IMG/VR virus record: IMGVR_UViG_3300005512_000025
Span: 1,863 to 65,862 of that record
Reading direction: 5' to 3' (one strand)
DNA length: 64,000 nucleotides
Source of the DNA: a virus
Lineage: Duplodnaviria > Caudoviricetes
How positions within the stretch are numbered: the first letter of the stretch is position 1; each line of letters starts with the position of its first letter. The position numbers and the translations under genes were made by a program. This document shows, in pieces, positions 25,394 to 37,520 of this stretch. A model generated the notes under the pieces. It had not been told where the DNA came from. It saw only the letters and a program-made list of their open reading frames with translations, and did not search any database.

Positions 25394-25966
25394 TCACTTG
25401 CGGCATTTACCGCATGAGCAGAGGCTTGTTTGCCAGTTCTTGGTTTCAGTGAACTGGGACTGATAGGCTAGCGCCTCCTCGAGAGTATGCCAGGAGCCGT
25501 GATACTTGCCGTCCATGCGGAACGTGTAAGAACCTCGGTCCAGGGTGACGCATCCACGCCTGTGGGTAGTGGTACCATCGAGCAGGAGCTGCTGCTTTGC
25601 CTGGAGAACTTCTTCTTCGGTCTGGCACTGCTTGACAATCTTTTGTTTGATCCGCAGTTCCCAGGATCCACGCTGGTGATAGATCCGAGGCTCGAAGTGG
25701 CGGGCACGTTGATTGTTGTTCTGAGCTCCTCTGCTAGCCCAAATGCAGTTCCATGGGGCGTAGGGGCCATCGTTGTCTTTTCGCTCGATAGAGAAGCCCT
25801 CAGGACGCTCTCCCATGTCTCTGACGAACGTCCAGAAGTCGTTCCACTCACTGGCAAGGTAGATTCCGCGTCCGCCGTAATTGGAATAGGCCTTGCAGCG
25901 CGGATTGTTACACCGCTGGCGAATCGCTTTCCAGGTGTCGTAGAGGTAGTGCTCCTTGCACTTCAT
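25394..25966 (-). CDS. HNH homing endonuclease-like protein
   Basis: YDTWKAIRQRC...YGGRGI...DMGERP...SIERKDNDGPYAPWNC.WA; duplicated AP2-like beta modules at the C-terminus. Confidence 0.85.
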   Translation of the reverse strand: MKCKEHYLYDTWKAIRQRCNNPRCKAYSNYGGRGIYLASEWNDFWTFVRDMGERPEGFSIERKDNDGPYAPWNCIWASRGAQNNNQRARHFEPRIYHQRGSWELRIKQKIVKQCQTEEEVLQAKQQLLLDGTTTHRRGCVTLDRGSYTFRMDGKYHGSWHTLEEALAYQSQFTETKNWQTSLCSCGKCRK

Positions 25967-36297: not shown

Positions 36298-36568
36298 GGA
36301 TTCCTCCTTTGGTTGATGTCTACAGTATGGCAATAAAAAAGCGGCCCGTCAAGGCCGCGTCATATTGCTTAACGTGCGTAGAAGAGTGGTGCTGACTGGA
36401 CTATGGCTGCGCAGATCAGGATGAAAATGATGTTGCCCAGGATGCTCTTGAAAGGATCGGTCATGGATGAGGTCCCAACTGATCATATTCTGGCTTCTGG
36501 ACTCGCCGAAGTCAAGGATTGTCAGCGGGAGCAAACCGAAGAAAAAGATTCTGAATATCTTTGCCCAT

Positions 36569-36592
36569 GAAAAAAGGGCCCGCAGGCCCCTT
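36569..36592 (-). terminator. Terminator after the DUF4278-like gene
   Basis: GGGGCC-TGCG-GGCCC followed by T6. Confidence 0.7.
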
Positions 36593-36594
36593 GA

Positions 36595-36702
36595 TCAGAT
36601 GAAGGTGGTGTACTTGATCCCTCGGTAGCAAAGCTCCTTTTGGGCGGCTTGCAGGGCGGCCTTCTTGAGGGCCTTCTTTTTGATCAGTGCTAGAACGTTC
36701 AT
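36595..36702 (-). CDS. DUF4278-like small peptide (GifB/IF17-related family)
   Basis: MNVLALIKKKALKKAALQAAQKELCYRGIKYTTFI, with L-x-YRG-x-x-Y motif. Confidence 0.7.
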   Translation of the reverse strand: MNVLALIKKKALKKAALQAAQKELCYRGIKYTTFI

Positions 36703-36717
36703 GGTCTTGTGGTCAAT

Positions 36718-36774
36718 GCCCAGGTCCCCGTCCTTTGGCCTGGATCGAGCTGCAACCCCTGAGGGTCGGACGCT
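36718..36774 (-). ncRNA. Glutamine-II (Downstream-peptide) riboswitch
   Basis: P1 CGTCC/GGACG, P2 GACCC/GGGTT, GCAG junction, pseudoknot CCAGG/CCTGG, GGGA after P1; ends ~16 nt before the YRG peptide start. Confidence 0.75.
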
Positions 36775-36834
36775 TATAACATAGACTACCCGATTACTGT
36801 AGCGAATGTTACTGAAACTGTATCAGCACGCAAC

Positions 36835-36856
36835 AAAAAAGGGGCCGAAGCCCCCT
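36835..36856 (-). terminator. Rho-independent terminator
   Basis: GGGGGC-TTCG-GCCCC followed by T6. Confidence 0.75.
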
Positions 36857-36873
36857 AAGTTGAGTATTTGTAC

Positions 36874-37059
36874 TTAGAGCCTGTAGTCACCTGGGTCCCG
36901 TTTTGAGAGAACCACTCCACCAAACTCAGGCTGAAGGTCGATAGCATTGCGGACGATCTCCTCGGTCAAGCCAAAGGAGCGATCTTTGCCAGACGGTTCA
37001 ACAAGGGCCCACATAAAGCGGGTCTTGCGAACGGTCCAGCCTTCAGGTAGTTGCTTCAT
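36874..37059 (-). CDS. Hypothetical protein
   Basis: 61 aa, coupled. Confidence 0.6.
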   Translation of the reverse strand: MKQLPEGWTVRKTRFMWALVEPSGKDRSFGLTEEIVRNAIDLQPEFGGVVLSKRDPGDYRL

Positions 37060-37520
37060 GAGAAAACGAGGTCAGTAGGGTGGGCAAGGAGGAGGATGTT
37101 TGGATTACCTGCGTCGAACTGTTTGCAGGCATCACCTTTTCCGAGACAACAGGTGTCGTCTTCGCGAAGGAAGACACGGACGCCTTCGGGTATGAACTTG
37201 GCAGCTCCCAGGGCATCCAGTAGCCCGTTCAGGCGCTCGCGAGTGGTGCGAGAGGGGCGGCCCTTGCTGTCGTAGAAATCGCCAGAAAAGACTCCAATAC
37301 CAGCGATGACGCGAGGGTTGAAAGGGTTGGCAACCAGGCGAATGATCTCCTTGTCGAACAACCGTACTGCAAGGGCAACGCAAGGGCAACAAGGGCAGTC
37401 CTTGAGGACGACCTCGGTATTCCCTGCCTTCCCGTCCTGAAATCCCTCAGGGCCATGGACCATGTACTGGCGGATCTTATCTACCGCAAACTGCGTCAAT
37501 TGACGATTGGATCTTGCCAT
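37056..37520 (-). CDS. Hypothetical early protein
   Basis: 154 aa with GxPSRTTRERLNGLLDAL motif. Confidence 0.65.
   Translation of the reverse strand: MARSNRQLTQFAVDKIRQYMVHGPEGFQDGKAGNTEVVLKDCPCCPCVALAVRLFDKEIIRLVANPFNPRVIAGIGVFSGDFYDSKGRPSRTTRERLNGLLDALGAAKFIPEGVRVFLREDDTCCLGKGDACKQFDAGNPNILLLAHPTDLVFS

Follow-up and report, generated by a model that had tools for sequence, protein, structure and literature searches.

The glutamine-II aptamer, formerly called the Downstream-peptide motif and represented in Rfam by family RF01704, has been described as confined to marine picocyanobacteria (PMC6212724). For one such type-2 leader, that of Prochlorococcus MED4, ON behavior has been shown (PMC6212724), and the short distance between aptamer and AUG suggests control at the level of translation (PMC6698751). 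The function of the picocyanobacterial peptides resembling IF17, a glutamine synthetase (GS) inactivating factor, is explicitly stated to be unknown (PMC6212724, PMC6316151). Riboswitches are rare in phage genomes. One survey counted only two glutamine aptamers in the genomes of cyanophages (PMC5473149); glnA RNA has been reported in T4-like cyanophages (PMC9964418, PMC9602691) and a glutamine riboswitch in Melnitz-like phages (PMC9004378). Here, we describe a glutamine-II riboswitch on the minus strand of a viral DNA of 64,000 nucleotides (the window; positions 1,863 to 65,862 of IMG/VR record IMGVR_UViG_3300005512_000025), where it lies in the 5' leader of a gene for a 35-residue peptide carrying a Tyr-Arg-Gly (YRG) motif.

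We consider it likely that this locus is a host-derived nitrogen-sensing mini-gene, in which a glutamine-II switch, an NtcA-controlled promoter, and a peptide gene are combined in the genome of an S-CBS2-like cyanosiphovirus. Through it, the virus can probably read the nitrogen state of the cell. The open-access literature yielded no account of siphoviruses that carry the type-2 cassette, none of the NtcA box in it, and none that recognizes the phage peptide as DUF4278-like. Glutamine riboswitches in cyanophages are already known as such, and the more interesting lead is the clade-wide and cross-morphotype pattern set out below.

The aptamer and its structural conservation

The leader matches RF01704 over the full length of the model (positions 1-60 of 60) with a score of 48 bits where the gathering threshold is 33 bits, and this is the sole Rfam family to reach its cut-off in a scan of the whole window, with which a whole-genome search agrees. 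A preliminary description, made without database searches, had proposed that the 5' leader of a YRG peptide gene in this phage is a glutamine-II riboswitch and had named a covariance-model search with the Downstream-peptide model as a check. The full-length match bears this proposal out, together with the covariation described below and the 16 nucleotides between aptamer and ATG. The topology assigned to P1, P2, and the pseudoknot was the same as that found here, with the helix names exchanged: in Rfam and crystal nomenclature, the pseudoknot is formed by CGUCC/GGACG and the hairpin P2 by CCAGG/CCUGG. All elements described there, the open reading frame (ORF) included, are present on the minus strand; the end coordinate given, 36774, falls one base short of the 36775 of the aptamer (Table 1).

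Alignment of 14 phage copies left CGU, GCA, one A, and ACGGGG as invariant columns, which coincide with the bases lining the ligand pocket in the crystal (PMC6698751). In the pseudoknotted structure, 97.6% of the cells of this alignment are paired and double-sided changes occur in 11 of the 15 pairs. None of 500 shuffles reached the observed covariation on four of five measures, 7 of 500 did so on the fifth, and sliding the 3' partner out of place lowered pairing to 24-44%. Four compensatory versions of the pseudoknot exist (CGUUC/GAACG, CGUUG/CAACG, CGUCC/GGACG, and CGUCG/CGACG), one of which, CGUCC/GGACG, is that of the window. The pairs that vary are the two that crystallographers reported as not conserved (PMC6698751). 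On this comparative evidence, the aptamer is genuine and under structural selection.

Twelve bases are conserved at more than 97% in the glutamine pocket (C1, G2, U3, G18, C19, A33, G35, and A38-G42 in crystal numbering, the inclusion of G35 being our reading of PMC6698751), and the window is identical at 11 of them, with A in place of G35. This base forms a major-groove triple with pair 4:37. Among 50 distinct aptamers (loci L002-L121; columns 11, 54, and 56 of alignment A1), it is G in all 46 that have U4:A37 and A in all four that have C4:G37, the window included. Because the triple base tracks the 4:37 pair, the one core departure of the window represents a coordinated three-base change rather than damage, and the sequence pattern fits an alternative base triple.

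The virus and the distribution of the cassette among its relatives

The window covers 64,000 of the 65,862 bases of a virus record rated as 95% complete. It has a G+C content of 53-56% and encodes a portal, a large terminase, a tape-measure protein, tail fiber proteins, a class II-type ribonucleotide reductase, a primase, an exonuclease, and a DnaB-like helicase. The portal protein shares 73% identity with that of Synechococcus phage S-CBS2, the host of which is Synechococcus sp. CB0204 from Chesapeake Bay. The window is a near-complete genome of an uncultured S-CBS2-like cyanosiphovirus, and its hosts are to be sought among marine or estuarine cyanobacteria. A blastn search of positions 36300-37100 against a phage collection gave no match, as the DNA sequences of the relatives have diverged too far; the portal protein was used as the route instead and recovered 57 IMG/VR loci.

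RF01704 exceeded its cut-off in 17 of these 57 related virus records, all among the closer relatives, and lay ~2 kb downstream of the portal gene each time. Among cultured phages, S-CBS2 (GU936714, cassette at 70798-71050) has a 66-bit aptamer (70798-70856) directly upstream of gp099, a hypothetical protein, and the estuarine isolates S-CRES1 and S-CRES2 have aptamers of 47 bits. In the Prochlorococcus siphovirus P-SS2 (25481-25730), a sub-threshold aptamer of 30.8 bits stands directly before a homologous peptide gene. Neither the aptamer RNA nor the rest of the module, NtcA operator and DUF4278-like peptide, is annotated as such in the GenBank records of these four phages. S-CBS2 and S-CRES1/2 share with the window their phage lineage and a syntenic cassette; they and P-SS2 differ from it in encoding a full peptide of 55-58 residues with two YRG motifs and in keeping a Shine-Dalgarno-like GGAG in the leader, whereas the window has neither. 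The aptamer lies 15-25 nucleotides from the peptide gene across the phage copies (17-19 in the isolates), and the two are linked: in 50 related virus records, all 15 above-cut-off aptamers have the peptide gene directly downstream and none is solitary.

The annotation of the S-CRES phages at this site deserves mention. In S-CRES2 (L124, OQ587940, 964-1416), an annotated coding sequence on the opposite strand, gp45, spans both aptamer and peptide gene, and S-CRES1 (L132) has no annotation there. Both are probably errors, because the site holds a 47-bit RF01704 match and a conserved 55-residue ORF.

Loss and decay of the cassette are also seen. Several relatives whose contigs span the site are without it. 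In locus L082 the two parts have decayed jointly, the aptamer scoring 28 bits and the peptide frame containing two stops. L016 (10935-11195) has a core shortened to ACGG and an intact two-YRG peptide, and L014 (10950-11225) has a core of ACGGG and a peptide in which the first YRG is replaced by KTG and the rest is kept. The cassette therefore behaves as an accessory module.

This distribution also bears on the explanation that the locus reflects chance resemblance, host contamination, or a chimeric assembly. The restriction of RF01704 to marine picocyanobacteria in earlier work (PMC6212724) would speak for such an origin, and some motif matches in IMG/VR adjoin tRNAs and may be host islands. 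Against it stand the E-value of 1.4e-8 over the full model, the phage structural and replication genes on both sides of the cassette, its synteny in cultured S-CBS2 and S-CRES1/2 and in 17 of the 57 virus contigs, and its presence in P-SS2. The isolate phage genomes exclude a chance match and host contamination, and the probability that we leave to this explanation as a whole is negligible.

Probable host origin of the cassette

A homologue of 57-60 residues with the same N-terminal helix is encoded in 35 Cyanobium, Synechococcus, and Prochlorococcaceae genomes, including those of Cyanobium sp. ATX 6A2, FACHB-13342, and CH-040 and of Synechococcus sp. 8F6. RF01704 ends 16 nucleotides before the ATG in 18 of the 20 host loci scanned, and in a 19th the aptamer lies further upstream. 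In each of five whole host genomes searched, the single RF01704 match was the aptamer of this cassette. All 18 host cassettes examined have a perfect NtcA box (mostly GTAGCAACCGCTAC) 7 nucleotides upstream of the -10 hexamer and an invariant spacer, CACUGUGGAGACCGUG.

The host cassette, of the type found in Cyanobium and subcluster-5.2-type Synechococcus, thus shares with the window the order of NtcA box, -10 hexamer, RF01704 aptamer, 16-nucleotide spacer, and peptide gene. The 59-residue DUF4278 protein of the host shares its N-terminal MNxLxLI...AQ helix with the phage peptide, and the NtcA box of some phage copies (GTATCAACCGCTAC) is nearly identical to that of the host. The two differ in the peptide, that of the host having two YRG motifs and a DUF4278 score above threshold (27-28 bits) and that of the window one motif and a sub-threshold score, and in the distance from NtcA box to -10 hexamer, which is 7 nucleotides in hosts and 10 in the window. 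From these comparisons the phage cassette is judged to be a captured host module. A host-to-phage direction is inferred because the module is in every host genome examined and contains an operator for a host transcription factor.

One database record calls for separate comment. A 242-kb contig (L093, CALRKN020000002.1) of a metagenome-assembled genome labeled Bradyrhizobium ivorense carries a cyanobacterial cassette of NtcA box, RF01704 aptamer (57 bits), and DUF4278 peptide gene, and either the bin or its Bradyrhizobium label is probably wrong.

The promoter and its NtcA box

GTA-N8-TAC is found at the equivalent place in the window and four close relatives, with a variable N8. Downstream of it, the TAGTCT of the window stands where relatives have TAGAAT, TATAAT, TAAACT, or TACAAT. 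If transcription starts ~7 nucleotides past the -10 hexamer, the predicted center of the box falls at about -29.5. Known NtcA repressor sites are centered at -30.5 and -7.5 (gifA/gifB) and at -28.5 (Anabaena gifA), and the activator position is -41.5 (PMC6316151). The box of the window would thus occupy a repressor-like position.

The same motif was counted over the whole window, which contains 14 sites (3453, 3685, 12228, 14807, 15529, 27740, 32497, 34661, 36799, 38147, 41161, 50577, 51327, and 62415) against 5.0 ± 2.2 expected from shuffled sequence, a number that 0 of 100 shuffles reached. Because the motif recurs in this way, a single match is weak evidence, and it is the conserved position in hosts and phages that carries weight. 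Read in this light, the NtcA box at 36812..36799, unseen in the preliminary description and common to the host cassette, strengthens the suggestion made there that the phage senses host nitrogen status.

Layout of the minus-strand unit

The features of the unit are listed in Table 1. Transcription is predicted to start near 36776-36774 and to yield a monocistronic transcript of ~205 nucleotides. With its own promoter and a terminator on either side, the locus is the self-contained unit that had been proposed, and relatives also have a terminator at the equivalent place downstream of the peptide gene.

Table 1. Features of the riboswitch-peptide unit in the window (all on the minus strand).
Feature	Position	Strand	Evidence or remark
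Intrinsic terminator of the preceding gene (hairpin and U-run), upstream boundary of the unit	36839..36856	-	-12.3 kcal/mol; same sequence conserved in relatives L068, L073, L078
NtcA-type box GTAACATTCGCTAC, perfect GTA-N8-TAC, 10 nt upstream of the -10 hexamer	36799..36812	-	Motif match
-10 hexamer TAGTCT (TAN3T), 7 nt before the start of the aptamer model	36783..36788	-	Positional homologue of the -10 in relatives and host
Glutamine-II riboswitch aptamer	36719..36775	-	RF01704, 48 bits, E 1.4e-8
Aptamer pseudoknot strands CGUCC + GGACG	36772..36768 + 36733..36729	-	
Aptamer P1	36767..36754	-	
Aptamer linker GCAG	36753..36750	-	
Aptamer P2 strands	36744..36739 with 36724..36719	-	
16-nt spacer CAUUGACCACAAGACC, aptamer to AUG	36703..36718	-	Length equals that of the host spacer; conserved CACUGUGGAG absent
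35-residue basic peptide gene: N-terminal amphipathic helix and single YRGxxY	36595..36702	-	ATG at 36702, stop 36597-36595; product ends LCYRGIKYTTFI
Downstream intrinsic terminator: 8-bp GC-rich stem, loop UGCG, U6; begins 3 nt past the stop	36570..36592	-	Hairpin 36592..36573, -14.2 kcal/mol, z -2.9

The next mini-unit downstream occupies positions 36341-36515 on the same strand. It has a promoter-like TTGACT-17-CAGAAT at 36515..36487, an ORF for 31 hydrophobic residues at 36464..36369 (MTDPFKSILGNIIFILICAAIVQSAPLFYAR), which may encode a small membrane peptide, and its own terminator at 36358..36341.

The peptide and its family

The peptides of relatives are 54-62 residues long and follow the pattern MNxLxLIK...AQ...KAYRGVxY, a linker of ~15 residues, and xYRGxxY. 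Two YRG motifs are present in 11 of 12 aligned relatives; the window peptide consists of the N-terminal helix and one YRGxxY followed by the stop, with the invariant Y-R-G-x-x-Y residues kept. In the DNA alignment, the window has an in-frame gap of ~66 nucleotides, in which the first motif and the linker would have been lost, and the PHROG profile alternatively aligns the peptide to the first 34 of 55 positions. Since the two alignments disagree, an internal deletion and a C-terminal truncation both stand.

The window peptide matches phrog_545, a phage small protein of unknown function, with an E-value of 2.2e-9 (38.1 bits; its residues 1-33 align with positions 1-34 of the 55 in the profile), and the peptides of relatives match it with values of 2e-14 to 8e-21. 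The sole Pfam match of the window peptide is PF14105 (DUF4278), at 15.4 bits (E-value 0.025) over the last 19 profile positions only, below the gathering score of 25.3. DUF4278 is the best match for all 13 phage peptides, and the five for which scores were seen have 15-21 bits, all below the cut-off. A profile of the phage peptides, with a 55-residue relative as lead sequence, retrieves 246 proteins, among them Cyanobium proteins that reach 27-28 bits on DUF4278, above the cut-off, and that bear the NCBI name 'DUF4278 domain-containing protein'. The assignment to DUF4278 made in the preliminary description therefore stands as homology, through phrog_545 and the Cyanobium proteins, and does not stand as a profile match of the window peptide itself, which scores below the cut-off and is a one-YRG short form. 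By sequence relationship, this peptide is a divergent, shortened member of the DUF4278 lineage, by homology and not by the Pfam threshold.

A search of the peptide against NCBIfam gave no match. The exact 35-residue product is absent from a collection of ~15 billion proteins, which fits the earlier remark that its ORF had been missed by gene calling. Searches for a second copy of the short form, in IMG/VR with the exact spacer pattern and in JGI metagenomes with a codon-degenerate QKELCYRGIKY pattern and an aptamer pattern, found none.

The lineage of the peptide invites the explanation that it is an inactivating factor like IF17 or IF7, with which the phage throttles host GS at high glutamine, as the preliminary description had suggested. 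The regulatory logic proposed for the cassette copies that of gifB and gifA in its NtcA operator at the core promoter and its glutamine riboswitch (PMC6212724, PMC6316151). The peptide is also basic and resembles DUF4278, and a family retained in the genomes of more than 300 cyanophage isolates matters for infection. However, the segment of IF17 to which DUF4278 corresponds is the N-terminal one, reported as dispensable for GS inactivation, and in streamlined marine picocyanobacteria control of GS by IFs has previously been ruled out or questioned (PMC6212724, PMC6316151). IF17-like proteins of picocyanobacteria lack the C-terminal region that holds the critical arginines (PMC6212724), and in a PDB sequence search the peptide profile found no meaningful match, so that it resembles no solved structure there. 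As the DUF4278 part is the dispensable one, the throttling of GS is unsupported, and we regard this function for the peptide as unlikely.

Expression platform and proposed mechanism

In the mechanism favored here, that of a functional nitrogen-sensing mini-gene, a sigma-70-type promoter (-10 TAGTCT), the -35 region of which is overlapped by the NtcA box, would drive the ~205-nucleotide transcript. In a nitrogen-starved host, NtcA activated by 2-oxoglutarate would repress this promoter, as at gifA and gifB, a role suggested by the position of the box. Glutamine would bind in the groove of the pseudoknot/triplex formed by CGUCC/GGACG and the GCAG linker strand and stabilize the fold, and by analogy with the family, ligand binding would raise translation initiation at the AUG 16 nucleotides downstream. 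The peptide would then be made only in infected cells that are replete in glutamine and nitrogen, and the 35-residue lysine-rich product would most likely bind a host protein of nitrogen metabolism.

How binding might be coupled to translation is suggested by the leaders of hosts (18 of 18) and most phage copies, which carry CACUGUGGAG after P2, with the Shine-Dalgarno-like GGAG and CUGUG. Pairing of this CUGUG, which lies beside GGAG, with the linker CGCAG is possible in hosts and in ~9 of 13 phage copies; the window is without this pairing, and it shows no covariation. A switch in which CGCAG and CUGUG exchange, the linker leaving CUGUG to dock when ligand is bound, would be an attractive model, put forward here as an idea. 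For the window leader, RNAfold pairs AGGACG, which includes the 3' strand of the pseudoknot, with CGUUCU at codons 3-4; this pairing is not conserved and was not relied on.

Several observations weigh against a functioning unit in the window. Ligand binding, the transcription start, NtcA binding, and expression of the peptide are each inferred. The window has CAUUGACCAC in place of CACUGUGGAG, so that GGAG is gone, and a search for an alternative fold sequestering the ribosome-binding site gave none that was convincing for its leader. Its -10 hexamer is weaker than those of relatives. The peptide is at least 20 residues shorter than those of all relatives, and with no second copy in IMG/VR or the JGI metagenomes, the short form may be a recent, possibly disabling, deletion. 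Finally, the switch is dispensable in some lineages, since L014 and L016 keep the peptide behind a degenerate aptamer.

Such points lead to the explanation that the window holds a half-decayed relic, the aptamer of which folds and may bind glutamine, with the output broken and the unit lacking a regulated function and heading to loss. It would account for a spacer without the GGAG and CUGUG of the 18 host and most phage copies, for a peptide of 35 rather than 54-62 residues with one YRG rather than two, and for a short form that has no second copy in the protein collection, IMG/VR, or the JGI metagenomes. Decay is moreover real in the clade (L082, L014, L016), and the cassette is missing from many relatives that cover the site. 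On the other hand, the NtcA box, the TAN3T -10 hexamer, the 48-bit aptamer with 11 of 12 core bases, the 16-nucleotide spacer, the ATG, the open frame, and the strong terminator are all in register. The length difference is in frame and Y-R-G-x-x-Y is retained, and one-YRG forms may be viable, as L014 also lost only its first YRG. Shine-Dalgarno sequences are often absent from marine picocyanobacterial mRNAs, which likewise counts against a relic. A relic thus seems to us quite improbable, and the nitrogen-sensing mini-gene is preferred. The missing YRG and the missing GGAG may nevertheless mean that its output side is weakened or rewired; this copy is either rewired, Shine-Dalgarno-independent, or partly disabled.

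Comparison with known systems

The peptide family extends beyond the siphoviruses. A tblastn search with the peptide of a relative found it in 313 isolated phage genomes, and the matches listed, which had 100% query coverage and 45-49% identity, are T4-like Synechococcus myoviruses (Syn9 gp198, S-RIM8, Syn19, S-SM1, Syn30, Bellamy, and others), in which the gene often adjoins talC. These cyanomyoviruses have the same phrog_545 peptide, 46-49% identical to those of the siphoviruses, behind a glutamine aptamer, but the aptamer is of the glnA type (glutamine-I) and often tandem, the virus family is another, and the gene lies in the talC/nrdB auxiliary-gene region (PMC9964418, PMC5473149). By sequence, the phrog_545 peptide family is thus tied to both glutamine aptamer classes in two phage morphotypes.

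The T4-like loci themselves show further detail. Sequence of the glnA-type aptamer stands upstream of the YRG peptide genes in loci L122-L131 (Syn9, S-RIM8, Syn19, S-SM1, Syn30, S-B64, S-P4, Sf-CH1b, and Bellamy; for example L128:100-400), and Bellamy has a complete aptamer of 34.5 bits against a cut-off of 35. Six other T4-like phages have a complete first aptamer and then a second, the 5' half of which (CGUUCAUCCC) abuts the ATG of an ORF of ~53 residues (T4-GC 430 / Syn9 gp197, ending ...WDAND), while its 3' half (GGGACGCAAACGACUGAAGGAACGGG) overlaps the last codons of the same ORF. The whole ~53-residue ORF thus appears to sit in the hairpin loop of the second aptamer. In S-RIM8, UCCC/GGGA is changed to UCCU/AGGA, a compensatory change that fits a long-range stem.

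It is possible, and is proposed only tentatively, that glutamine-gated expression of phrog_545, a host-derived YRG micro-protein shared by two unrelated morphotypes, is a general and so far undescribed strategy by which cyanophages act on host nitrogen assimilation, using the type-2 aptamer in S-CBS2-like and P-SS2 siphoviruses and the type-1 aptamer in T4-like phages. If true, the phage copies would offer a handle on what the DUF4278 peptides, which marine picocyanobacteria have in multiple copies, do in the cell. The findings also give a large PHROG of unknown function its first functional label. What is added here to the known phage riboswitches is that a cyanosiphovirus clade, including the cultured S-CBS2 and S-CRES1/2, carries a complete host module, and P-SS2 a sub-threshold version of it. 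Cultured phage-host pairs are on offer for studying the roles of the riboswitch and the IF17-like peptide at different nitrogen supply. For the window itself, the outcome is mainly solid annotation: the riboswitch is genuine, and its output gene is atypical and shortened.

Two cyanobacterial systems are among the closest to this unit. Synechocystis gifB resembles it, as it is read here, in combining an NtcA operator at the core promoter with a glutamine-activated translational ON switch and in encoding a small basic protein with a DUF4278 segment, IF17 (PMC6212724, PMC6316151). The gifB aptamer differs in being of the glnA type-1 class (RF01739), and IF17 has a GS-inhibiting, IF7-like C-terminal region that the phage peptide lacks. 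The glutamine-II leaders of marine picocyanobacteria, such as the Yfr6/PMM1846 leader of MED4, share with the window the covariance model, the P1/P2/pseudoknot topology, and 11 of the 12 pocket bases (PMC2864571, PMC6212724, PMC6698751). Like it, they stand within ~20 nucleotides of the start of a tiny YRG ORF, on a short monocistronic transcript with an NtcA motif in its promoter. The unit of the window differs from them in being encoded by a virus, in having CGUCC/GGACG with A at the triple position in place of CGUUC/GAACG with G, and in a peptide that consists of a 20-residue N-terminal helix and only one YRG.

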